Below are positions 29,780-46,855 of a stretch of DNA of 64,000 nt, piece by piece (position 1 is the first letter of the stretch; each line of letters begins with the position of its first letter). The stretch lies in the NCBI GenBank assembly GCA_021604645.1, contig BQJJ01000003.1, positions 176,551 through 240,550 on the forward strand. Reading direction: 5' to 3'. A model generated the notes under the pieces. It was not told where the DNA came from and did not search any database. It saw nothing but the letters and a program-made list of their open reading frames with translations. The DNA is from Methyloligella sp. GTDB taxonomy: Bacteria > Pseudomonadota > Alphaproteobacteria > Rhizobiales > HXMU1428-3. The translations under genes and the position numbers were made by a program.

Positions 29780-32056
29780 TTATTGCCAAAAATTGAATTC
29801 GATATTCTCTGGTGCGAGGCAGACTTGGTCGCTGCAGGCTTGTAGCTTTAAAGCGATTTTGTTTGCGACTTGTTGTTGGTTTTTGGGAAAGTCTGTCATG
29901 ATTGTTTTTTCTCCTTCATAGAGTGAGAGTTTCTCTTTATTGAAGGAGAGGGATTTTATTTTAGGTTTTGGAAATTCTTTCGCTTCGATCTTTTGACCAT
30001 TTATTGTTATTTGAGTTGGAATTAAATAGTCTTCTAATGGAGCATTTGAATTGATATGCCAGCCAGGACGTATGGTGATAGTGAGTGTTACTCCCTTAGT
30101 CTCTCTATTTAATTTAAGAGCAACTTTTACATTTCCCTTTGCTGTGTCTCGAATAAACCCGGTGTTGCCATTGCTCGCAGCGTTAACAGCGTTTACCAAA
30201 ACACCTCTCATTTGTGGGTTGCTCAGAGCATGGCCTGAGAGCGCAGAGGCGAGTAAAAGGCTTTTCTTTTTTTGTTCAGAATTGCCATTTTTTTCTGCCA
30301 GTGCATGTAATAATTTCAAGGCAAGCGCGTTGCCTGATGGGATTGGATTGTCATCAAGGGGCGGGAAGGTGCCGATGCCATCTTGCGTTTCTGTCATACG
30401 GTATGGAGTGATTTCTTTTGACCATTGGGAGCCAAATCGTAATTGTAATTCATCGGCCAATCTTTGAACCGTTTTCATAGAAGTTTGGTTCTGTTCTCCT
30501 GATGGTTTGTATGTTTCAAGTGCGAGTAATGCTAATCCAAGCCCTGCGTAATCGGCTAACTGACCGTCAATTCCTATGTTTCCTTTATAGCTTGCGCGAT
30601 AGAGGCGATCTTTTTTAAGCATGTTTTGTGTGATGTAGTTAGCTGCTTTTTTTGCGGCCGTATAATAATTTTCTCGCTCTAGGATGTATGAGGCATGGGC
30701 CAGGGCTTCTATCATCATGGCATTCCAGGATACTATTATTTTTTTATCTTTGTGGGGGGGATTTCTTTTTTCTCGGGCTTGTCTTAATTGTTCAAGTTCA
30801 CCCTTTAATTTCTCATAATAGATTTGTTCGTTTAGTTTTAGTGATTTTGCGATGTCTGCTGGTAGTTGTTCTAAATGCAGAATATTTTTTCCCTCAAAGT
30901 TTCCGTTGTTAGTTAGTGGAAATGTTTTGAGAAGGACAGATGTTTTTGAATTGTAGAATTCCTCAATTTCCTGTTTTGACCAGATGTAGAAAGCACCTTC
31001 AATTTTTTTGCCGTTTTCATCTATGGAGTCTGCGTCTTCAGCTGAGTAGAAGCCGCCGTTCTTGTCTTGCATATCTCGGAGAACATAATCGAATAACCGA
31101 ATGGCTGTTTGTTTGTATCTCTCTTTTCCGGTTAGGGCATAGGTTCTTACAAGAAGGTTTCCGATTAAAGCCTGGTTGTAGAGCATTTTTTCAAAGTGAG
31201 GAACGAGCCAGCGTTCATCAACGCTATAGCGGTGAAAGCCTCCACCTACATGGTCATGTATGCCACCTTTGATCATGCCGTCTAATGCGGCCATTGCGGT
31301 GAATAATGCGGTGTTATCTCCTCTCTCAGCTTGATCCAGAAGAAATGACAGGGCTGATTCTTGAGGGAATTTAGGAGCAACTCCAAAGCCACCGTTAAAT
31401 TCGTCTTTGTTTTTGGTTGTCATTTGCATGGCTTCAGAAATGACTTCTGGCGTTATATTTCGTACCCCTTCAGTTCGGTTCATGTAGCGGTTTATACCAT
31501 CTGCGACCTGCTTGCCTTGTTCAATGAGTGTTGTTTGTTCGGTTTTCCAGAGTTTTACAATATGTTTTAGGGTGCTTAGGAATTGGTCTGGGGGGAGGTA
31601 AGTGGAGGCATGGAATGGTTTTGCATTTGCTGTGAGGAAAACTGAATTGGGCCAGCCGCCTGTGCCTGTCATAGCTTCGGTTACAAGCATAAACTGGCTG
31701 TCGAGGTCAGGGCGTTGCTCTCTGTCTACTTTGATGGAGATGAAATGTTCGTTTAGATATTTTCCAATTTCTTCATTTTCAAAACTTTCGCGGGCCATGA
31801 CGTGACACCAATGACAGGTTGAGTAACCAACAGAGAGAAAGATCGGTTTGTTTTCTGCCTTTGCTTTTTTTAAAGCTTCTTCACCCCAAGGGTACCAGTT
31901 AACTGTGTTGTAGAGATGTTGTAGAAGATAGGGGGATTGGGAGCCGAGTAGTTTGTTGGCAGTTTGTTTTTTGGTTTCTGTTTTTTCAGCTGCTGCGTAT
32001 GAATGACTAAAAAGAATATATAAACAAGTAATAGATATTTGAATGAATAACTTCAT
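29780..32056 (-). CDS. Secreted YyaL/SSP411-like thioredoxin-domain protein with C-terminal DsbD-N-like domain (probable ATG 32056)
   Basis: [36 protein letters not shown]; C-terminal PGWHINSN...[11 protein letters not shown]. Confidence 0.88.
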
Positions 32057-32178
32057 CGCACCCTCACGCATCAGAAATTTATTTTGATTTTCCTTTTATG
32101 CTAATTGATGTTCTGGTTTGGCTACAATCAAATTATCGCGAGGAATTGATCTGTATCTTTTCATTGAAACCTCTTTAT

Positions 32179-32208
32179 AAAAAAAAGACCTCATAATTTA
32201 TGAGGTCT
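32179..32208 (-). terminator. Terminator of the globin/multiheme operon
   Basis: AGACCTCATAA-x-TTATGAGGTCT followed by a T-run on the minus strand. Confidence 0.75.
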
Positions 32209-32306: not shown

Positions 32307-32759
32307 TTAAGTTCCGAATAATTTTCCAAAAAATCCTTTTTTAGATTTAGACGCTTCTGCGGCCGCGTCTTTCATGACGGTTGCCAATGTGCCGTAGGTA
32401 GTGACCCAGGCGTCTTTTACTTCTGGTGTGAAGTCGTCTTTTAATCCTTCTTGCAAAGTCCAGATTAAGGCTTCACCCACTTTGTCGTAGTGCTCATCTT
32501 TTACACCGTAATCAACATGTTTCGCTCCAAGTGTTTTTACTGGCTCGATGATTTGTTCGATTTGGTGAAGATTATTTACCGCGGTTCCTAGCATAGACAT
32601 AAGTTTGTCGCGCTGGTCTGTGATATTATCTGCAAACATTGGGCGGACTTCCGGGGCGATTTCGAAAAGTCTGCCGTAAAATAAATCGCCTGCTGTTGAA
32701 GCGATTGGTTCAACTTTTTTAAATGAAGATTGAACCAGCTCAACTTGTTCTGGTGTCAT
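32307..32759 (-). CDS. Single-domain globin (FHb/Vitreoscilla type) with C-terminal amphipathic tail
   Basis: LFYGRLF (TyrB10), DQRDKL (GlnE7), GAKHVDYGV (HisF8), HYDKVGEAL; tail KKGFFGKLFGT. Confidence 0.92.
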   Translation of the reverse strand: MTPEQVELVQSSFKKVEPIASTAGDLFYGRLFEIAPEVRPMFADNITDQRDKLMSMLGTAVNNLHQIEQIIEPVKTLGAKHVDYGVKDEHYDKVGEALIWTLQEGLKDDFTPEVKDAWVTTYGTLATVMKDAAAEASKSKKGFFGKLFGT

Positions 32760-32837
32760 TGTTTTGTTCCTTTGATTGGTTTTGAAGCCTCTCTCTTTGT
32801 TCTGGACAATGAGAGAGGCCAGATTTTAAACTTTTAA

Positions 32838-33425
32838 TTATTTAAGCGGAATACGGATAACTACACCGCCCATGACATCACCCATTTTGAAATCCTTTTT
32901 AGGTGTGTCTTTGTGATTGTTGTGACAACCAACACATGGTGTTGCGACTGCCACGTCTGCGTAAACAGCGGTGAAATATTTTTTGCCACCTAAGGTTTCT
33001 TCGCCGTAGAAATTTTTGCCTTTGTTAGCGTTGATATATTCAAGGCCTTTTTTCTCCAGCTCTGTTGTTGGTTTGTTTTGTTTGTTAATGGGCCATAGAG
33101 AAAGAAGAGAATAAGAGAATTTATCGGTTTTATCCGCTACTGCTTCTGCACCGAAGCGGAACATTTGAGCAGGTAGTGGCAAGGATTTATCATCCTCAAA
33201 GGATTCTGTGGCTTTGATCACTTTGTGCTTGTTAGCTAAACGCTTTACGACTTTTTTGGTGTAGATGGTTCTGTCTGATTCAAGGACCAGGTGCAGCATG
33301 TCTGTGACTTGTTGAGGTTCAAAGGTTTTAGCTGTTGCTGGGGCTGACATTGCCATGCCAAGCATGAGGCTACCGGTAGCAATTGAAAGAGCCGTTTTTT
33401 TCAATGATGTTTTAAAGTTCAACAT
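32838..33425 (-). CDS. Periplasmic DUF3365 (Tll0287-like) monoheme c protein
   Basis: Signal peptide; LSLWPINKQNKP; PCVGCH heme motif; GDVMGGVVIRIP. Confidence 0.85.
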   Translation of the reverse strand: MLNFKTSLKKTALSIATGSLMLGMAMSAPATAKTFEPQQVTDMLHLVLESDRTIYTKKVVKRLANKHKVIKATESFEDDKSLPLPAQMFRFGAEAVADKTDKFSYSLLSLWPINKQNKPTTELEKKGLEYINANKGKNFYGEETLGGKKYFTAVYADVAVATPCVGCHNNHKDTPKKDFKMGDVMGGVVIRIPLK

Positions 33426-33488
33426 GTAAATCTCCTTTAATGTTTTTAAAACAGCAGTTATTAGTTCGAAGTTTAGGGGAGGGGGAAA

Positions 33489-34916
33489 TCATTTATTTTC
33501 CTCCGGTTTCGATGATCGTTTCAGTACCCAATCAATGCTTTCTATTTTGAAGGCTGACCGACCATGGAAATTCTTTTTTATTAAATTTGGATCCGCTAAG
33601 GAATCGATAGAGAACTGCAAGCCATGACAGGATGAGCAAACAGAACGGATCATCTTTTCGTTTGGCCTTAGGTTGTCATTTTGATTATGAGTGATGATGA
33701 AGACTTCGTTTTCATATTCATCTTCAACGGCTATGCGCGGCATATGACAGGTTGCGCAAGTAACGCCAGAACCTTTGGGCAATTCTCCCTTTAGCTCCTT
33801 TTGCCACAGTTCATGATGAGGTGATGTGAGGTAGGCTTTGCTGTGCTCATCATCGTGACATGAAAGGCAGGCCTGAACTTTTGCTTTTTGGATATTGAAT
33901 TTATGATTGTTTTTTCCGACTGAGTGACATGTGTTGCATGTGAGTTCAGTCCCGTGTGCCGATTGCTTCATTGGTAAGCGTGCCAACTCAGGGCGCATGG
34001 GGGAAAGTTTCTTTTCTTTAAACAATCCGAATGGATCTGCTTTTGATTGCAGCATGTTTGGAGCTAAACGCATGCCATGCTTACCAGCAAGAAAGCTTTT
34101 GTTTTCTTCTTTATGGCAAGTTGCACAAACGGCAATACCTGGTTTTTTAATCCATGCCTGTTTTTCTTTGTTAGGTTGATGGCAAGATGAACAATTTACA
34201 CCGTTCTTTGCGTGAGCATCATCATGCCATGTGTCTAGTAGCTTTTGGTTGATGTGCTCTTTTGGAGCATTGGCTTCTGTTCGGTTTAATGGATTGCCGC
34301 GTTTTAGCCCGCCATATTCTTCGCTTAGTTTTTCATAATTTAAATTGTTTATAAGCTGGGTTAGCTTCATTTCAGGTTGTTTGGCGTGCTTTTCTAGAAA
34401 GTTTTCATAGAGTGCACGGTTATCATGATAGTTATGACAACCAGAACTTGCGCAGCCTTCGAAGTTCAAATCTTTATGGGTTAGAGGACGATCTTTTCCA
34501 ACATCTGCATGGCACTTAAAACAGTAATCTTTAGGGATTGTGACCCCCATACCCATTGAGCTGATGAGCTCGGGCTTGTGCTCTGTATGGCATGTTACGC
34601 ATTTCATTGCGTTTAGTTGCTCGAGACGTGCTGCGTTTCTTGGATCTCTGAACTTCTTTATAGGATGACTGTCTTTTGAAACCTTTAGTTCGTTTTCATG
34701 ACAACTCAGACATGCTTTTTGAATGGTATCCCCATCAGTGAAGCCGTTGCCATGACATGTGTTGCAAGAGAGTTCGATTTGATGGTGACCGCTTGTGGTT
34801 TTACCAATAAGGAGTGAGGAACGATCGCCATTATAAAACATTGTTGTGGTTAAGTAGCCACCAATAGCTACCGTGCCACTCAACCAAAGCAACCAAAATA
34901 GAATATTACGAGACAT
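33489..34916 (-). CDS. Membrane-anchored multiheme cytochrome c (10 CxxCH plus one CX4CH)
   Basis: N-terminal TM; CNTCH, CLSCH, CVTCH, CFKCH, CASSGCH, CSSCH, CATCH, CNTCH, CLSCH, CATCH, CSSCH. Confidence 0.92.
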   Translation of the reverse strand: MSRNILFWLLWLSGTVAIGGYLTTTMFYNGDRSSLLIGKTTSGHHQIELSCNTCHGNGFTDGDTIQKACLSCHENELKVSKDSHPIKKFRDPRNAARLEQLNAMKCVTCHTEHKPELISSMGMGVTIPKDYCFKCHADVGKDRPLTHKDLNFEGCASSGCHNYHDNRALYENFLEKHAKQPEMKLTQLINNLNYEKLSEEYGGLKRGNPLNRTEANAPKEHINQKLLDTWHDDAHAKNGVNCSSCHQPNKEKQAWIKKPGIAVCATCHKEENKSFLAGKHGMRLAPNMLQSKADPFGLFKEKKLSPMRPELARLPMKQSAHGTELTCNTCHSVGKNNHKFNIQKAKVQACLSCHDDEHSKAYLTSPHHELWQKELKGELPKGSGVTCATCHMPRIAVEDEYENEVFIITHNQNDNLRPNEKMIRSVCSSCHGLQFSIDSLADPNLIKKNFHGRSAFKIESIDWVLKRSSKPEENK

Positions 34917-34930
34917 TCACAAAGGCTCCT

Positions 34931-36940
34931 TTAATAATAATAGACGGTTAGAATATGAAGGGCTAACAAGACAGGTAGTGGCCAGAAGGTAATGATATGT
35001 AGCCAGAATGTTATTTTTGCTGGTGCTTCATTATTCAAACGCATGCCTTTTTCTAACAAACGATGTTCTCCTGCTTTTAAGAGACCTGTTAATGCCCCTG
35101 TTAATCCAAGAGCGATGAAACTGAGCATCAACCAGAAATTTAAATTTTCACCCAGATGAAACCCAGTATGAAGAAACAGAATAAACGCAGCTAAAAGACC
35201 AATGATGATGTGAAATGCGCGCCAGCCTGAATAAGCTCCGAAGGAGAGGAACTTTATATTCTTTCGTAATGATAGAATGGCGGCGATGACTGATAGTCCA
35301 AGAAGTGTAAACCCGCTGACTTGTTTATAATACCCATCTGTCCAGAGCATATCGATTGTGAAATCTGGAATGACACTGTCTCTAGCTGGGAGGCCTGGGG
35401 CGATGAGTGTGATGAGTGCTGCCAGTAATGCTAACGCAGAGCCAATGAGAACCGGTTTGATCCATTCAATTGGTTCATATTTGGGTTTTCCTGCAAGTAA
35501 TTCGTGAATGAGGGGTTTGCAACTGCCGCAAACGGTTGAACAGCTTGTTTCTCTCTTTACTGCATCAAAGGTGACGCAACCTTGTGAGATGGCGTCCCCG
35601 ATTTGTCCGCGGGTAACGCCCGTGCAGTTGCAAACTGTAGCAGCAGCTGGCCAATCAGTGACACTTTGTGGTTTCTTTTGAGAAAATAGAAAACCTGATT
35701 TTTGAAAACTTAGTTTTTGCCAAGGCCATATGAATTTTTGTTGGACGATTGCATTTTGAAGAACATTGATTTCTGGCCAGTCACCGATTGCCATGGCGCC
35801 TACCAGACGATTTTTTTGTAAAATTAAACGACGATAGATGGCTTTTTCTGAATTTTGATAGGTAATTGTGTTGATATCAATTCGCTCTGCGAGTTGTTCT
35901 ACATCTCCCATTGAGAAAACATCTGAACCGACGACTTTTAACTTTGTTGTTGGTAAAGATCCGGAGTAACTTTCTGTTTTACCTATGATATTGTTAACGG
36001 CTATGGTCGCTTGTTCGAGCCCCGGACCTACTAGTCCGTAAGTGTTGCCATTATATTCAGCGCATTCCCCAATAGCGTAAATGTCTTCCTCGGAGGTTTG
36101 CATGTTTTGATTAACAGTAATGGCACGGCTAACAGAAAGGCCTGCATCTCGTACCATTTCCATATTTGCTCTAATACCTGTGCAAACTATTAAGGTATCG
36201 CACTCAATATTTTCTCCACTTGAAAGTGTGATACCCTCTACCCTGTCTGTCCCGTTTATTTTTTTAACGGATAGACCCGTTTTTACGGTTAGACCCAGTG
36301 CTTCTATTTGCGATGCCAGGAGAGCGCCTGCCCCTTCGTCTAATTGGCGCGCCATTAGTCTGGTTTCGTGCTCAACTACGATGGTTTCTATTTTTCTGTT
36401 GGCCATACCACGAGCTGCTTCTAGACCTAGGAGCCCGCCGCCGATTACAACACAGCGCCTTGCTGATATGCTTCTTGCGACTAGTTTTTCAACGTCATCA
36501 AAGTTTCTAAATTTAAAAACACCATCAAGTTCAATGCCTGGTATTGCTGGAATGTGTGCCCTTGACCCTGTTGCTAATATAAGTTTGCTATAAGAGAAGC
36601 GTCGATCGAATTGACCGATGACTTGTTTGTTTTCTGTATCTATTCCAACAATTGGATGAGATGTGTATTGTTTTACATTTGCATCTTTTGGTAAGTTTGG
36701 TTCTAGATAAACCTGTCCGACTTGAACATCTCCTGAGAGGAGGGGGGTCAGCTTTACTCTATTGTAAGGCTGCCAACGTTCTGCATTAAAAATTATGACT
36801 GGGACATCATTTGCCGATAGGCATTCAGCTGCACGTATCCCTGCTGGCCCGCCACCGATTACAACAACCGGGTTCAGTTTTGTATCCAGAACGGTAGACG
36901 AGTTTTTACAATCAGAATTTTTCTGATCTTTCAGCAGCAT
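34931..36940 (-). CDS. NirB-like NAD(P)H/FAD oxidoreductase plus BFD [2Fe-2S] plus 5-TM di-heme-b domain (probable ATG 36940)
   Basis: GGGPAG and GGGLLGLE dinucleotide motifs, IYAIGEC; VCNC...CGSC; two H-x13-H pairs on TM3 and TM5; SD AGAGGGG. Confidence 0.85.
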   Translation of the reverse strand: MLLKDQKNSDCKNSSTVLDTKLNPVVVIGGGPAGIRAAECLSANDVPVIIFNAERWQPYNRVKLTPLLSGDVQVGQVYLEPNLPKDANVKQYTSHPIVGIDTENKQVIGQFDRRFSYSKLILATGSRAHIPAIPGIELDGVFKFRNFDDVEKLVARSISARRCVVIGGGLLGLEAARGMANRKIETIVVEHETRLMARQLDEGAGALLASQIEALGLTVKTGLSVKKINGTDRVEGITLSSGENIECDTLIVCTGIRANMEMVRDAGLSVSRAITVNQNMQTSEEDIYAIGECAEYNGNTYGLVGPGLEQATIAVNNIIGKTESYSGSLPTTKLKVVGSDVFSMGDVEQLAERIDINTITYQNSEKAIYRRLILQKNRLVGAMAIGDWPEINVLQNAIVQQKFIWPWQKLSFQKSGFLFSQKKPQSVTDWPAAATVCNCTGVTRGQIGDAISQGCVTFDAVKRETSCSTVCGSCKPLIHELLAGKPKYEPIEWIKPVLIGSALALLAALITLIAPGLPARDSVIPDFTIDMLWTDGYYKQVSGFTLLGLSVIAAILSLRKNIKFLSFGAYSGWRAFHIIIGLLAAFILFLHTGFHLGENLNFWLMLSFIALGLTGALTGLLKAGEHRLLEKGMRLNNEAPAKITFWLHIITFWPLPVLLALHILTVYYY

Positions 36941-37073
36941 GTGACCCCCTCTGATAAGCCTCCATTGCATAATTTGTTGGAGTACTTATTCATTGGTTGC
37001 TCAAACATGAATGAAAGAGCTGTTGTCTTTCTTTCATGCATGTTTGATGCATTTTTAATTTTTCTTAATTAAA

Positions 37074-37089
37074 AGCAAGCCGTATGCCA
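37074..37089 (-). promoter_or_regulatory. Sigma54 -24/-12 promoter of the redox operon
   Basis: TGGCATACGGCTTGCT (GG-N10-GC) about 135 bp upstream of the first gene. Confidence 0.75.
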
Positions 37090-37347
37090 TTTGCCGGCAT
37101 TCTTTTTTTTGTGCAATAAATACAGTGGTTTATGGCGTTTCTTTTTGGTGGTGAAGAATTTTTCAGCTTTTATTACATGCCTTATAAATAGGCATCAGCT
37201 GTGTCGTTGATGAATTATTACGACTTTTTTGAAGGTGAGTTTTTGGGTTTTATTTAAAAAAAACAAAATTTATTTTGGCCAATATGCCATAAGGGAGGGT
37301 GAGTATGAAGTGGTAAAACTTTTACCACTTCATTGATTTTTCTAGTT

Positions 37348-42853: not shown

Positions 42854-44821
42854 TTATTCTCCCAGTTTATTGGGGGCAACAATTCCATATTTCTTAATTT
42901 TTCGATGTAAAGTGGATCTGCTAATTTCTAGCTTTTCAGCCGTTGTTGTTATGTTCCAATTGTTTCTGACCAAAATATTTTGGAGAATTTTTGCTTCACT
43001 TGATGATTTTGTGGCTTCTAATGAAAAGCTATCAGGATTGTTGATCTTGATATCATTTACAAAGGCAGCTGTATTATCATCAATGCTGTTTGCGTTAAAA
43101 GATTGCAGTAGTTGTTCTGGAAGGTCGTCAACTTTGATTGTTTTCTCTTCGCAAAAACACAAAGCGTATCGAAGAACGCTTTTAAGCTCTCTGATGTTAC
43201 CAGGCCATGAATAAGAGTTGAAAATGCTCATAACTTCGTTTGAGATTTCTATACTCTTAGCGGTGTCATCTGGTTCAGCGGACAAGATGGATTGAATGAT
43301 TTCCTGTAAGTTTTCTCTTTCGCGTAAAGGAGGCAATGTTATTTCTGCGCCTTTGATGCGATATAATAAATCTTGGCGGAACAGGCCTTGTTCGATGAGT
43401 TCTGATATATTTTTATGGGTCGCGCAAATTACTTTTATGTCGACAGGAATTGGCTCAACAGCACCTAGTGGGGTTACTTCCCTTTCTTCCAAAACTCTTA
43501 AGAGGTGAGCTTGAAGGTTGATTGGCATGTCGCCAATTTCATCAAGAAATAGAGTGCCATTATTACTGGCTAGAATTTTACCTTTTTTTCCATCCTTCAA
43601 ACCGTCTGTGAATGTGCCTGGCATATAGCCGAAGAGTTCACTATCCATGAGTGAGGGGGGGATAGCCGCGCAATTGAGAGCTACGAAAGGTTGATCTTTT
43701 CTATCGCTGGTTTCATGCAGGAGTTTTGCCAGAGTGTCTTTACCAACACCGGTTTCTCCTAATAAAAGCAGAGGTATGTCTTTATTGATAAGCCGTTTTC
43801 CGATTTCAACGCAGCGTAAAACATTTTTTTCTGATCCTGAAAAGTCGTCAAATTTTTTATTTTCGACTTCTATGGAGCTGTCAATAGGTGCTTTTTTCGA
43901 AGAGAGCTTTTTGCGTAAAACTGGCTTGGAGTCGTCTGAGGCGACATTTGAGCTGATACGTAGGCCTTTTACGAAATTGTTGGCCATTGGGCCTTCTTTT
44001 ATTTCTAAGAAATGTTTTTGCTTTGAAAAGATCTTTTCAACGGGCTCTTGAATGACTGTTTCTAGTGATTGCCCAACCAAGTTATACAATTCACATTCAC
44101 CCATAATCTCAAGGCAATCTTTTGTTGCACCTTGAATGATTCCGTCGTCATCAAATGCTAATAGGGCTTTGGATTCATACAGCGAGACATTGGAATAGGG
44201 AGAGCAAGAAATGATATTCTGTTCTTTAAAAAATGATAAAAATATATTTGCGCTAATTTGTTTGGCTGCTTCTTGAATGAAACTATGAGTAAAGAAGCTC
44301 TCTACATAATCTTCAGAAACCATGCGGGAAATGTTTATGGCTCCGATGATTTTTTCTTGTGTGTCAAAAATTGGGGCTGCTGTGCATGTGAAATTTTTAA
44401 GATGTTCGGCGTAGTGCTCAGTACCACTGATAGTCGTGCCCTGTTTATTGGCGAGGCTTGTACCTATGCCATTAGTGCCGATGTTATCTTCATTCCATAC
44501 TGAGCCGGTTATGAGGCCATGATTGCGGTACTCTGAACTTTCTGATGTATCTGCAAATTCGTTTACAGTTACACCGGTTCCATCGGCAATTAGCACGCAA
44601 TAATCACTTTCTTTTGCTAAGTGTCTTACTGCATTAATGACTTCTTCGCTGTGCTCGAGAAAGTGCTGGAGGGAATCTTGTCTAAGTTTAACTTCTTTTT
44701 CTGATAAGATATCAACGGGCTTACGAGCTTCTCTATCCAATTGGAATTGGTTTTTGCATCGACGCCAAGAGTTTTTAACGATTAGATCTCTATGGTCTTG
44801 GTATGCAAGCTCGTCTCCCAT
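42854..44821 (-). CDS. acoR: Sigma54-dependent activator, GAF-AAA+-Fis HTH (AcoR type)
   Basis: GTNGIGT GAF, GETGVGKD, GTFTDG (GAFTGA variant), LFLDEIGD, WPGNIRE. Confidence 0.88.
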   Translation of the reverse strand: MGDELAYQDHRDLIVKNSWRRCKNQFQLDREARKPVDILSEKEVKLRQDSLQHFLEHSEEVINAVRHLAKESDYCVLIADGTGVTVNEFADTSESSEYRNHGLITGSVWNEDNIGTNGIGTSLANKQGTTISGTEHYAEHLKNFTCTAAPIFDTQEKIIGAINISRMVSEDYVESFFTHSFIQEAAKQISANIFLSFFKEQNIISCSPYSNVSLYESKALLAFDDDGIIQGATKDCLEIMGECELYNLVGQSLETVIQEPVEKIFSKQKHFLEIKEGPMANNFVKGLRISSNVASDDSKPVLRKKLSSKKAPIDSSIEVENKKFDDFSGSEKNVLRCVEIGKRLINKDIPLLLLGETGVGKDTLAKLLHETSDRKDQPFVALNCAAIPPSLMDSELFGYMPGTFTDGLKDGKKGKILASNNGTLFLDEIGDMPINLQAHLLRVLEEREVTPLGAVEPIPVDIKVICATHKNISELIEQGLFRQDLLYRIKGAEITLPPLRERENLQEIIQSILSAEPDDTAKSIEISNEVMSIFNSYSWPGNIRELKSVLRYALCFCEEKTIKVDDLPEQLLQSFNANSIDDNTAAFVNDIKINNPDSFSLEATKSSSEAKILQNILVRNNWNITTTAEKLEISRSTLHRKIKKYGIVAPNKLGE

Positions 44822-45227: not shown

Positions 45228-45243
45228 TGGCATAAGCTTTGCT
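45228..45243 (+). promoter_or_regulatory. Sigma54 -24/-12 site upstream of the porin gene
   Basis: TGGCATAAGCTTTGCT. Confidence 0.65.
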
Positions 45244-45517: not shown

Positions 45518-46855
45518 ATGTTCAAAAAACTATTATTAACTACAGCTTTCTCACTGGCGTTATTGCCAGTAGCTGGGACTGCGAATGCAGCCGATCTTGG
45601 GGGAGATTGTTGTGCTGATCTGGAAGAGCGTGTTGCTACTCTAGAAGCAACAACTGCTCGTAAAGGTAACCGCAAAGTATCATTGACTGTCTCTGGTTGG
45701 GTAAGCCAGGCAATTTTGGTTTGGGATGATGGTGAAGAAAGCGATGCCTATATCGTATCTGACACAACAGACCTTTCTAACAACATCAGTTTTGCAGGTT
45801 CTGCTAAAATCAACAGTGACTGGTCTGCTGGTTATCATATTAATGTCTTCTTTGATAATGCGAGTGCTCTTTTCGTTGATCAAACCAACGATGATGCTTC
45901 TAATGGCATAACAGTTGAACGTGCAAATTTGTGGATCAAAAGTGAGAGCCTTGGTAAAGTCACGATTGGCCAACAAAGTGCTACTGGTGATAACGTAGCT
46001 ATTCTTGCAGATTTTTCTGGTACACTTTTCCCAGCTAATAACGTGATCTTTGATGGCGCATTTATGTTCCTTCGTCCTAAAGGCGGCACAGGTCTAGCTT
46101 CAGGTCGATTTGCAAACCTTGCTTTCTGTAACAGCGTTTCATTTGGTATTGGTAGTGACTGTAATGGTTTCCGTACAAATGCAATTCGTTATGATTCACC
46201 AACACTAGCTGGCTTTAGTGTTTCAGCATCTTGGGGTGAAGATGACAAATACGAAGGTGCTATTAAATATGGTAACAAATGGCAAGACTATCAAGTTTCA
46301 GCTGCTGTTGGTTATGGTATCACGCATGGTGAAGGTACAGCTGGCCAAGGCGTAGCATCTCGTTCTGAGTTCCTACAAATCGGTGCGATGGTTAAACACT
46401 TGCCATCTAACCTCTGGATTTATGGTTCTTGGGATACTGAAGACACAGACAGTGCTAACTTTTCAGATGGTACACAATTATACCTTAAAGCTGGTTGGTC
46501 ACCAAAGTTGAATTCACTTGGTACGACACACTTCTGGTTTGAATACGGTAAAATTGAAGACAGACATGGTAACTACGCTAGTGGTGCTAACACATGTGCT
46601 GCCTTTGATGGCACAGGTGCAAACCTTGACGGAGCTTGCGCAAGTGCAGCTGACGCGACTGTAAATGTAACTGGTTCTGAAATTACACGTCTAGGTGCTG
46701 GTATCCAACAACAAATCGACGCAGCTTCAATGCAAATCTACGCTAAATGGCGCATGATGGAAGCAGAAGTTGATTTCAACGATGCTGGTGTTGCTGGTTC
46801 AGAAGAGTTTGAAGAGCTTCATATGTTTATGGCTGGTGGCGTTATCTTCTTTTGA
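45518..46855 (+). CDS. Outer-membrane porin (Hyphomicrobiaceae-type N-terminal coiled coil)
   Basis: Signal peptide; CCADLEERVATLEATTARKGNRKVSLTVSG; IRYDSP; terminal Phe. Confidence 0.88.
   Translation: MFKKLLLTTAFSLALLPVAGTANAADLGGDCCADLEERVATLEATTARKGNRKVSLTVSGWVSQAILVWDDGEESDAYIVSDTTDLSNNISFAGSAKINSDWSAGYHINVFFDNASALFVDQTNDDASNGITVERANLWIKSESLGKVTIGQQSATGDNVAILADFSGTLFPANNVIFDGAFMFLRPKGGTGLASGRFANLAFCNSVSFGIGSDCNGFRTNAIRYDSPTLAGFSVSASWGEDDKYEGAIKYGNKWQDYQVSAAVGYGITHGEGTAGQGVASRSEFLQIGAMVKHLPSNLWIYGSWDTEDTDSANFSDGTQLYLKAGWSPKLNSLGTTHFWFEYGKIEDRHGNYASGANTCAAFDGTGANLDGACASAADATVNVTGSEITRLGAGIQQQIDAASMQIYAKWRMMEAEVDFNDAGVAGSEEFEELHMFMAGGVIFF

Follow-up and report, generated by a model that had tools for sequence, protein, structure and literature searches.

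A conserved and unstudied four-gene operon that looks to carry a form of NAD(P)H-driven transmembrane electron export

What could a bacterium gain from four adjacent genes that encode a membrane-bound flavoprotein, a multihaem cytochrome c, a secreted monohaem protein and a globin? This question is raised by positions 32307-37089 of the window, our name for the whole 64,000-nt stretch of Methyloligella sp. DNA analysed here (contig BQJJ01000003.1 of assembly GCA_021604645.1, positions 176,551 to 240,550). The operon is conserved and unstudied, and from its sequence it looks to carry a form of NAD(P)H-driven transmembrane electron export. Because it is predicted to be co-expressed with nitrate-assimilation genes, it probably handles nitric oxide (NO) or another nitrogen oxide. 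A first-pass annotation, made from the sequence without database searches, had proposed such a conduit and knew of no characterised system with this architecture; in a full-text literature search, we likewise found no paper that describes the operon.

The four open reading frames (ORFs) lie on the minus strand, as do the features described below unless another strand is given: gene 1 at 34931-36970, gene 2 at 33489-34916 (475 aa), gene 3 at 32838-33425 (195 aa) and gene 4 at 32307-32759 (150 aa), with intergenic gaps of 14, 63 and 78 nt. Gene 1 most likely starts at the ATG at 36940 rather than at the upstream ATG at 36970, because GAGGGGG precedes the former, the database protein P0001 is identical to the shorter version, and this start is kept in the genus while the upstream one is not. 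We therefore number its residues by the 669-aa version (34931-36940), which we describe, from its ORF, Pfam and NCBIfam matches, conservation and AlphaFold2 model, as a predicted fusion of flavin, iron-sulphur and cytochrome-b parts. Upstream is a sigma-54 promoter, TGGCATACGGCTTGCT (37074-37089), with GG at -24 and GC at -12, an exact match to TGGCAY-N5-TTGCW, a pattern found twice in the window (0.22 expected) and 11 times in the 3.57-Mb genome. Downstream is an intrinsic terminator (32178-32208) with a 10-bp stem (32208-32186), a 3-nt loop and T8, while only two internal terminator-like matches were seen, both weak and both within the coding sequences of genes 4 and 1. These ORFs, the promoter match and the hairpin with T8 agree with the first-pass annotation, which had seen four co-oriented genes between a GG-N10-GC promoter and a single terminator. 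The acetoin-dehydrogenase operon upstream (42602 to 37348) has its own sigma-54 promoter, activator and terminator, so the four genes are a separate unit. Judged from the sequences, the operon is real and not a product of chance, because the four transmembrane (TM) histidines and the 11 haem motifs described below are conserved and the gene order recurs in other loci.

The cytoplasmic part of gene 1 resembles the N-terminal part of NirB. It consists of an FAD/NAD(P)H and Rubredoxin_C region (35738-36868, residues 25-401; Pyr_redox_2 E 4e-58, Rubredoxin_C E 5e-19) and a BFD-like [2Fe-2S] domain with four cysteines (35492-35638, residues 435-483; Fer2_BFD E 4e-13). In 105 gene 1 sequences, three of the cysteines (C437, C471 and C474) never vary and C439 hardly does. 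The best match of the flavodomain in the PDB is 3klj, a NirB-family N-terminal domain (E 2e-42), and when the full-length model was searched with Foldseek, every match was a flavoprotein reductase (ferredoxin, rubredoxin and persulfide reductases, E 1e-35 to 1e-30). Both the FAD/NAD(P)H and the BFD [2Fe-2S] parts of NirB are thus found in gene 1, which is 35% identical to the true NirB of this genome (C1:91699-94146 on another contig, 915 bits). The NirB model of NCBIfam, TIGR02374, aligns only over model positions 1-468 of 794, with 406.6 bits against an equivalog cut-off of 578.35, and therefore the siroheme half, the NIR_SIR_ferr/NIR_SIR siroheme-[4Fe-4S] catalytic unit, is absent. Both observations had been made in the first-pass annotation, and the Pfam matches and the partial TIGR02374 match confirm them.

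In place of the siroheme half, gene 1 has a five-helix TM domain (34937-35461, residues 494-668). An AlphaFold2 model built from a 105-sequence alignment (pLDDT 87.7 for the whole protein; pLDDT 88.8 and pTM 0.81 for the TM domain alone) places the helices at residues 494-513, 536-557, 570-592, 600-630 and 640-668. Two H-x13-H pairs, H577-x13-H591 on TM3 and H648-x13-H662 on TM5, are located such that H577 and H648 lie about 7-8 residues into their helices and H591 and H662 near the outer ends. There are K/R-rich loops after TM2 and TM4, and the flavodomain is N-terminal and cytoplasmic, so by the positive-inside rule TM3 and TM5 should run parallel, from inside to outside, with the C-terminus in the periplasm. 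The model therefore agrees with the earlier description of five helices with two such pairs on parallel TM3 and TM5. The first-pass annotation had also named loss of the four histidines in homologues as something that would speak against its reading; they are invariant in 28 sequences, in 105 sequences and in 12 maximally diverse sequences (35-61% identity), across three phyla. H626, part of an EHR motif on the cytoplasmic side, is almost always conserved. Histidines spaced as H-x13-H are about 21 Å apart along a helix and on roughly the same face, a textbook arrangement for two bis-His b haems, and in our model this spacing and the matching depths at which the pairs sit in TM3 and TM5 are compatible with two stacked bis-His haems.

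Assigning the domain to a known family was less successful. The match to Ferric_reduct (PF01794) is sub-threshold (E 0.019, 15.5 bits against a cut-off of 28), covers TM2-TM3 only, and appears at all in just 2 of the 12 diverse members; Ni_hydr_CYTB (PF01292) is also below its cut-off (E 0.054). DUF4405 (PF14358) matches 5 of the 12, again below the cut-off (best E 0.0018), and a distant 270-aa relative matches it at E 5.8e-4, which is also below the cut-off. These sub-threshold matches to two-haem cytochrome b families suggest, without proof, a remote kinship. Foldseek, a method that resolves helical bundles poorly, found nothing significant in the PDB for the TM-only model (best E 0.4); DUOX1 ranked 6th (E 1.1, TM-score 0.37) and STEAP2 43rd. 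The layout that the first-pass annotation ascribed to NOX, ferric reductases and MsrQ thus stands as far as the position of the His pairs on TM3 and TM5 goes, but the domain cannot be assigned to that class. We treat it as a putative new, or very remote, di-haem cytochrome-b-like domain.

Gene 2 (33489-34916) encodes an N-terminally anchored cytochrome c with ten CxxCH motifs and one CASSGCH, and the motif count agrees with the 11 haems first proposed. All 11 motifs, including the Cx4CH, are invariant in 64 homologues; only the histidine of haem 7 (H268) is merely nearly invariant. The same homologues share eleven further invariant histidines and two more that are nearly so. In the PDB, gene 2 matches only the haem-4/5 module of NrfA and octahaem nitrite reductase (ONR), and does so twice (residues 218-281 and 375-454; E 3e-9). 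CxxCK does not occur in gene 2, which reaches 18.6 bits with TIGR03152 against a cut-off of 692. We considered whether gene 2 might be an enzyme of the NrfA, ONR or HAO type and rejected this, given that the likeness is confined to the repeated haem-4/5 module, that CxxCK is missing and that HAO is not among the matches. From its sequence we read gene 2 as a wire and not as a recognisable enzyme. Two orthologues depart from the common form. The one at L095:11106-12439, from a metagenome-assembled genome (MAG), is split into two ORFs (260 and 190 aa), which could be due to a frameshift, a sequencing error or a pseudogene, and the one at L106:10116-11669, next to a variant of gene 1 described below, is extended at its C-terminus and has 10 haems rather than 11, the third motif being missing.

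Gene 3 (32838-33425) is a secreted Tll0287-like monohaem c protein of the sCache_haem family (PF11845, E 3.5e-21, 76.6 bits against a cut-off of 24.1), with a signal peptide ending in APATA and one conserved CxxCH, CVGCH; these features bear out the periplasmic monohaem protein of the first-pass annotation. It is the most conserved of the four proteins, with 51-75% identity across phyla, even in Planctomycetota. Neither gene 3 nor its 10 orthologues (11 sequences aligned) has a cysteine outside the CxxCH, and therefore gene 3 lacks the axial Cys ligand of Tll0287; a phmmer search of the PDB did not reach Tll0287 itself (5B82), so the residue at that position is unmapped. A Cache-haem protein without the axial Cys is reported to bind NO tightly, while forms with Cys/His ligands are reported to act as redox proteins (2026 preprint, 10.64898/2026.02.01.703092).

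Gene 4 (32307-32759) is a single-domain 3/3 globin, in agreement with the first-pass annotation (Pfam Globin E 3e-16), with TyrB10, GlnE7 and HisF8 and without a signal peptide. Among solved structures it is nearest to the Methylacidiphilum HGb globins (E 1e-27), with neuroglobin, Vgb and Hmp next. The Hmp model PRK13289 scores 78 bits against 432 and aligns over positions 3-143 only, with no fused FNR-like reductase. A basic, amphipathic C-terminal tail, KKGFFGKLFGT (32307-32345), probably docks the globin at the membrane; the pattern KKGF[FL]xx[LM]F is found in 7 of the 10 orthologous 3/3 globins and is absent in L003, L007 and L008. In one locus, L096 (13084-14435), the globin is replaced by a truncated haemoglobin (PF01152), immediately followed by an FNR-like reductase with Fer2, FAD_binding_6 and NAD_binding_1 domains. 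Because a non-orthologous haemoglobin has taken its place, we regard a globin function as integral to the module. Beyond this reductase, L096, the most divergent of the alphaproteobacterial-type loci, has genes for a TonB receptor, PepSY_TM, DUF2271 and DUF4198 that look like an iron-uptake set.

How widely is this set of genes kept together? A search with the TM region returned 673 proteins of about 670 aa with the architecture of gene 1, and an exhaustive profile search returned 979 clusters at 50% identity with E <= 1e-3, among them 358 with E <= 1e-30. A scan of genome contigs for related loci was swamped by true NirB, which shares the pattern VIGGGLLGLE, and only 4 of its 80 loci were full-length relatives. 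We examined 11 loci in Alpha- and Betaproteobacteria and Planctomycetota: Pseudolabrys sp. FHR47 (L001; CP039740), a Pseudomonadota MAG (L005), Pseudazoarcus (L006), Hydrogenophilales (L007), a Pirellulaceae MAG with 35% identity (L008), and six metagenome or MAG loci (L002, L003/L004, L093, L094, L095 and L096). The order gene 1-gene 2-gene 3-globin is kept in every one with enough sequence; the L006 contig stops after gene 2, so genes 3 and 4 are not covered there. This neighbourhood survey, which the first-pass annotation had proposed as a check, thus finds the genes together in 11 other loci. Closer to home, the module is present in 8 of 14 genomes of the genus, whereas no full-length copy occurs in 47 genomes sampled from other families of the order, and among 400 more genomes of the class, sampled evenly, two have it. 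The module is accessory and its distribution is patchy. Culturable bacteria that carry it include Pseudolabrys sp. FHR47 and Filomicrobium marinum.

Variants of gene 1 in which the flavodomain has been swapped are informative. P0248 (L108:704-3559) consists of an EF-hand, BFD, FAD_binding_6/NAD_binding_1 and the gene-1-type TM domain, and is followed by a gene-2-type cytochrome gene and a Tll0287-like gene. P0315 (L106:6881-9922) has three cyclic-nucleotide-binding (cNMP) domains, BFD, an FNR-type flavodomain and the gene-1-type TM domain, and is followed by a gene 2 orthologue with 41% identity (L106/L107). In both proteins the FNR-type domains are N-terminal to the TM domain. These swaps imply that the TM domain always stands behind an NAD(P)H flavodomain and BFD and is always partnered with a gene-2-type cytochrome. 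The EF-hand and cNMP variants look like signal-gated forms of the conduit and recall NOX5 and DUOX. More distant relatives of the TM domain (E ~1e-8) are found in the order of the window genome as 270-aa membrane proteins (L103:955-1767 and L105:1362-2174), which have both H-x13-H pairs and a helical insert. The protein encoded next to them combines a cNMP-binding domain with a 4Fe-4S dicluster, and judging from these sequences this is again a pairing of a cytoplasmic Fe-S donor with a His-bearing membrane module. The two together may be a separate, uncharacterised transmembrane electron module.

From these observations we propose the following path. Gene 1 would oxidise cytoplasmic NAD(P)H on its NirB-type FAD domain and pass single electrons from FAD, by way of the BFD [2Fe-2S] cluster, to two b-type haems held between TM3 and TM5, the inner one, on the cytoplasmic side, by H577 and H648 and the outer one, on the periplasmic side, by H591 and H662. 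The outer haem would reduce the 11 c haems of gene 2, which in turn would reduce the haem of gene 3 and, through it, an acceptor. The strongest candidate for contact with the substrate is gene 3, which has no counterpart of the Tll0287 axial Cys. The sequence of NAD(P)H, FAD, [2Fe-2S], two b haems and multihaem c, put forward in the first-pass annotation, remains the best reading and is strengthened because the histidines are invariant, the TM domain is always behind a flavodomain and BFD, and a gene-2-type cytochrome is always paired with it. We infer the binding of haem b, the outward direction of flow and the independence from quinones from these patterns, and regard an electron conduit from NAD(P)H to the periplasm as quite probable. 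The earlier description of the whole pathway as periplasmic holds for the secreted and anchored haem proteins of genes 2 and 3, but such a pathway does not explain a cytoplasmic globin. We suggest that the globin is an obligatory fourth part on the cytoplasmic face, probably an NO dioxygenase or an NO/O2-binding partner, and that gene 1 may keep it reduced.

When would such a conduit be made? In 4 of the 11 loci (L001, L003, L006 and L007), nitrate-assimilation (nas) genes adjoin the operon. In L001 it is followed by nasT-nasS-nrtABC, in L003 it lies between nasT-nasS and nirBD-nasA, in L006 nasT is immediately upstream, and in L007 nrtCBA and nasS are 2 kb away. Sigma-54 promoters are found 85-199 nt upstream of gene 1 in 6 of the 11 loci (L001, L002, L003, L006, L007 and L093), and the leaders of L002 and L093 contain strong terminators with a hairpin and a U-run. 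This arrangement is the combination of sigma-54/NtrC with antitermination known from the nas operons of Klebsiella, Azotobacter and Pseudomonas. In the genus of the window, the -24 and -12 elements are conserved in all four genomes compared while the spacer varies. The 5' untranslated region of our operon contains an RNA hairpin (36998-37051; -36.6 kcal/mol, z = -4.1) that is not followed by a U-run. We found no NasT in this genome by tblastn with the NasT of L003; a Pfam search for ANTAR also found none, yet it found none in control genomes either.

The genome has its nirBD-nasA-cysG and nrtCBA genes on another contig (C1:91699-102313), where sigma-54-like promoters, TGGCACGGAAATTGT and TGGCACAAAACTTGA, precede nirB and nrtA. 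Upstream of our operon, 105 nt from the -24 element, is the palindrome TGCCTATTTATAAGGCA (37178-37194), a candidate upstream activator site, and a copy identical at 14 of 17 positions, TGCCTATTTTGAAAGCA, is located 97 nt upstream of the nirB promoter (C1:91506). These are the only two sites in the genome that match TGCC[CT]ATTT-N4-[AG]GCA, a pattern defined post hoc, and TGCCTATTTATAAGGCA is kept in 3 of 4 genus members. Genes divergent from nirBD-nasA (C1:86729-91025) encode a periplasmic binding protein and a sensor kinase, together with an activator of the NtrC family in which GAYTGA takes the place of GAFTGA; this activator, encoded at C1:87985-89322, is a candidate for control of nirB and, through the shared TGCCTATTT..GCA site, of the operon. 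The sigma-54 activator encoded within the window (42854-44821) was considered and set aside, since it is more likely an AcoR for the adjacent acetoin-dehydrogenase operon, whose promoter TGGCACGCTCTATGCT is beside it at about 42677-42662.

The leader of the operon also contains ATGCAT-N5-ATGCAT, the core of an NsrR-type operator (37036-37052, no strand assigned), at about +10 to +30 of the transcript. The published NsrR motif is gATGyAT-(N5)-ATrCATc (PMC1274295), and our box equals its core while the flanking g and c do not match. This strict form occurs twice in the genome (0.35 expected), and in four genus members the box is conserved while its flanks diverge. Two NsrR/RirA-like Rrf2 genes are present, at C8:69609 and C1:294301, with scores below both the NsrR and the RirA cut-offs, and we consider an NsrR control specific to the genus plausible. 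NorR-type GT-N7-AC triplets upstream of the promoter were not evident by eye; no scan was run. The module would thus be expressed with the nitrate-assimilation regulon, in relatives through sigma-54 together with NasT or leader terminators and here through sigma-54, the nirB-like upstream site and the NsrR-type box.

Because expression appears to be nitrogen-regulated, the leader has an NsrR-type box, the operon contains a globin, and a Bradyrhizobium operon with globin Bjgb, flavoprotein Flp and NasC provides a precedent, we take NO or another nitrogen oxide as the likely target. Three features bear on NO in particular: the NsrR core in the leader, TyrB10 and GlnE7 in the globin, and the missing axial Cys in gene 3. 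Most likely the module would remove or convert NO or another nitrogen oxide (nitrite, hydroxylamine) that arises from nitrate use, on both sides of the membrane. The link to nitrogen oxides in the first-pass annotation is thus supported by the nas neighbours, the sigma-54 promoters, the cis-element shared with nirB and the NsrR-type box. Gene 2 has no catalytic-haem signature. We put the chances of an NO or nitrogen-oxide role at about even. The explanation as a whole, with the four genes as a single sigma-54-dependent operon for a membrane redox machine, the conduit, and the handling of nitrogen oxides, we favour slightly over its being wrong.

Several points weigh against this explanation. 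Exporting electrons from NAD(P)H dissipates membrane potential and calls for a physiological justification. The di-haem assignment depends solely on the conserved histidines, with neither a Pfam match above threshold nor a Foldseek neighbour. The 13 conserved histidines of gene 2 would suffice to make all 11 haems bis-His, leaving no evident catalytic haem, and in gene 3 the invariant His45 or the Met of LPAQMFR could provide a sixth ligand and close the distal site. On the side of regulation, nas genes are missing from the surroundings of 7 of the 11 loci, the NsrR-type box is confined to this genus, with none in other lineages, and the palindrome shared with nirB was recognised post hoc, with a probability of chance occurrence estimated at roughly 0.01. 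Since the globin of L096 has its own reductase, gene 1 need not be what reduces the globin.

These points leave room for other explanations. The one that survives best, which we nevertheless consider fairly unlikely, is an assimilatory periplasmic reductase, that is, an Nrf-like reduction of nitrite, hydroxylamine or NO to ammonium for uptake, driven by NAD(P)H under nitrogen limitation, with the globin turning cytoplasmic NO into nitrate for NasA and NirB. Nitrogen-type sigma-54 promoters across lineages and the adjacent nas genes would fit it well, as would the NrfA/ONR-like modules of gene 2, and in one source the orthologue from Filomicrobium carries the name 'nitrite reductase (cytochrome; ammonia-forming)'. 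However, the likeness to NrfA is limited to the electron-transferring haem-4/5 module, with no CxxCK and no recognisable set of NrfA active-site residues, and the genome already has nirBD-nasA.

Electrons could instead be exported under regulation to an acceptor other than a nitrogen compound, in the manner of NOX or a ferric reductase, with periplasmic superoxide, Fe(III), another metal or an organic compound as the product or acceptor, and with only an indirect link to the nitrate genes, for example through the iron demand of assimilatory enzymes. The obligatory globin, the adjacency of nasT and nasS and the NsrR-type box would then be unexplained, and the TM domain does not match the ferric-reductase domain (FRD) family above threshold. 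We therefore think this unlikely, even though the logic is that of NOX, the EF-hand and cNMP variants recall NOX5 and DUOX, and Ferric_reduct matches weakly. The seven loci without nas neighbours and the TonB receptor and PepSY_TM genes of L096 also point this way. Cache-haem proteins make superoxide with O2 (preprint 10.64898/2026.02.01.703092).

A simpler possibility is that gene 1 is only a membrane-tethered globin reductase, forming with the globin a two-part NO dioxygenase like Flp-Bjgb or Hmp, with its TM domain a haem-free anchor and genes 2 and 3 separate or fed by quinol. In Bradyrhizobium, Flp, a NirB-N-type flavoprotein, has been proposed to serve the globin Bjgb within a nas operon, narK-bjgb-flp-nasC (PMC4724949). 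The globin tail suggests docking at the membrane, and no fold or family match proves that the TM domain binds haem. A passive anchor would hardly preserve four invariant histidines at matched depths over three phyla, however, and the TM domain is still paired with the cytochrome when the type of flavodomain changes. The 270-aa relatives keep both H-x13-H pairs beside a cytoplasmic 4Fe-4S protein, and in L096 the globin has a reductase of its own. We consider this explanation improbable. Inward electron flow from NH2OH, NO or Fe2+ to the globin or flavin, or redox or NO sensing, is very improbable: Cache-haem domains fused to signalling modules do sense NO (preprint 10.64898/2026.02.01.703092) and some variants have EF-hand or cNMP domains, but Pfam assigns none of the four proteins an output or signalling domain, and eleven haems would be excessive for a sensor. 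Flow to NAD(P)+ would moreover be uphill and opposed to the membrane potential.

Three other loci came to our attention in the course of this analysis. Just downstream of the operon terminator, a gene at 29780-32071 encodes a secreted 763-aa protein with DUF255/Thioredox_DsbH and a C-terminal DsbD_N-like domain. The second exact sigma-54 promoter of the window, TGGCATAAGCTTTGCT (45228-45243, plus strand), is about 275 nt upstream of a 445-aa ORF (45518-46855) without a Pfam match. Elsewhere in the genome, at C1:24294, a textbook NsrR box, AAGATGCATTGTAAATACATCTT, is located upstream of a CuA-type haem-copper oxidase cluster with a subunit II containing CxExCGxxHxxM, a 487-aa subunit I and a SCO-like gene, which may encode a CuA-containing NO reductase.

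Returning to NAD(P)H-driven export as our preferred reading, it would, if true, be a second, independently assembled solution of the NOX and ferric-reductase kind, in which NAD(P)H electrons cross the membrane directly, bypassing quinones, and here enter a multihaem wire. Nitrate assimilation and NO homeostasis in soil and marine Alphaproteobacteria, Betaproteobacteria and Planctomycetota would then include a part that has so far gone unrecognised, and stand-alone Cache-haem proteins, like a neuroglobin-like family of bacterial globins, would be placed in a physiological context for the first time. The variants gated by EF-hand or cNMP domains point to control of electron export by signals, and a compact, genetically linked conduit from NAD(P)H to the periplasm would be attractive for bioelectrochemical engineering. 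More tentatively, the operon and its relatives may represent a hitherto unrecognised class of quinone-independent transmembrane reductases, in which a NirB-derived module, or an FNR-type one gated by Ca2+ or cNMP, is joined to a new di-haem-b domain, an 11-haem wire, a Cache-fold catalytic site in trans and a membrane-docked globin, for the nitrogen-regulated turnover of NO, nitrite or hydroxylamine at both membrane faces during nitrate assimilation. We regard this wider view as possible and no stronger than that.

How does the operon compare with known systems? NOX, DUOX, FRE, SpNOX, CsNOX5 and Fre-MsrQ-MsrP share a common logic in which NAD(P)H reduces a flavin, two stacked bis-His b haems (H-x13-H on TM3 and TM5) and then an outside acceptor. 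Relatives of gene 1 come close to these proteins in carrying a NOX5-like EF-hand and an FNR-type flavodomain. In gene 1 itself, by contrast, the flavodomain is NirB-type and N-terminal rather than FNR-type and C-terminal, there is an additional BFD [2Fe-2S] domain, and there are five TM helices instead of six, with a sub-threshold Ferric_reduct match and no significant Foldseek match. The predicted acceptor is also different, being a dedicated 11-haem cytochrome c and not O2, Fe(III) or MsrP. With NirB and its stand-alone relatives (NorW, rubredoxin and ferredoxin reductases, and Flp), gene 1 shares the FAD/NAD(P)H, Rubredoxin_C and BFD parts, while its TM domain replaces the siroheme/[4Fe-4S] NIR_SIR half of NirB.

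The closest regulatory parallel is the narK-bjgb-flp-nasC operon of Bradyrhizobium, where a single-domain globin and a NirB-N-like flavoprotein are co-regulated with nitrate assimilation by NasT/NasS and remove the NO made during that process (PMC4724949). Unlike gene 1, Flp is soluble, and a TM cytochrome-b domain, a multihaem cytochrome and a Cache-haem protein are all missing from the Bradyrhizobium system. Gene 2 resembles NrfA and the octahaem nitrite reductase TvNiR in its two haem-4/5-type modules and NrfH/CymA-type anchors in its N-terminal membrane helix, but it has neither CxxCK nor a recognisable catalytic haem, its eleven haems include a Cx4CH, and it would be fed by a flavocytochrome b rather than by quinol. 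Gene 3 is a stand-alone periplasmic member of the Tll0287/sCache_haem family (PF11845) with a CxxCH. It differs from Tll0287 and from the P. putida protein in having no axial Cys, and in this respect is like the NO-binding sensor type, although it is without a signalling output.

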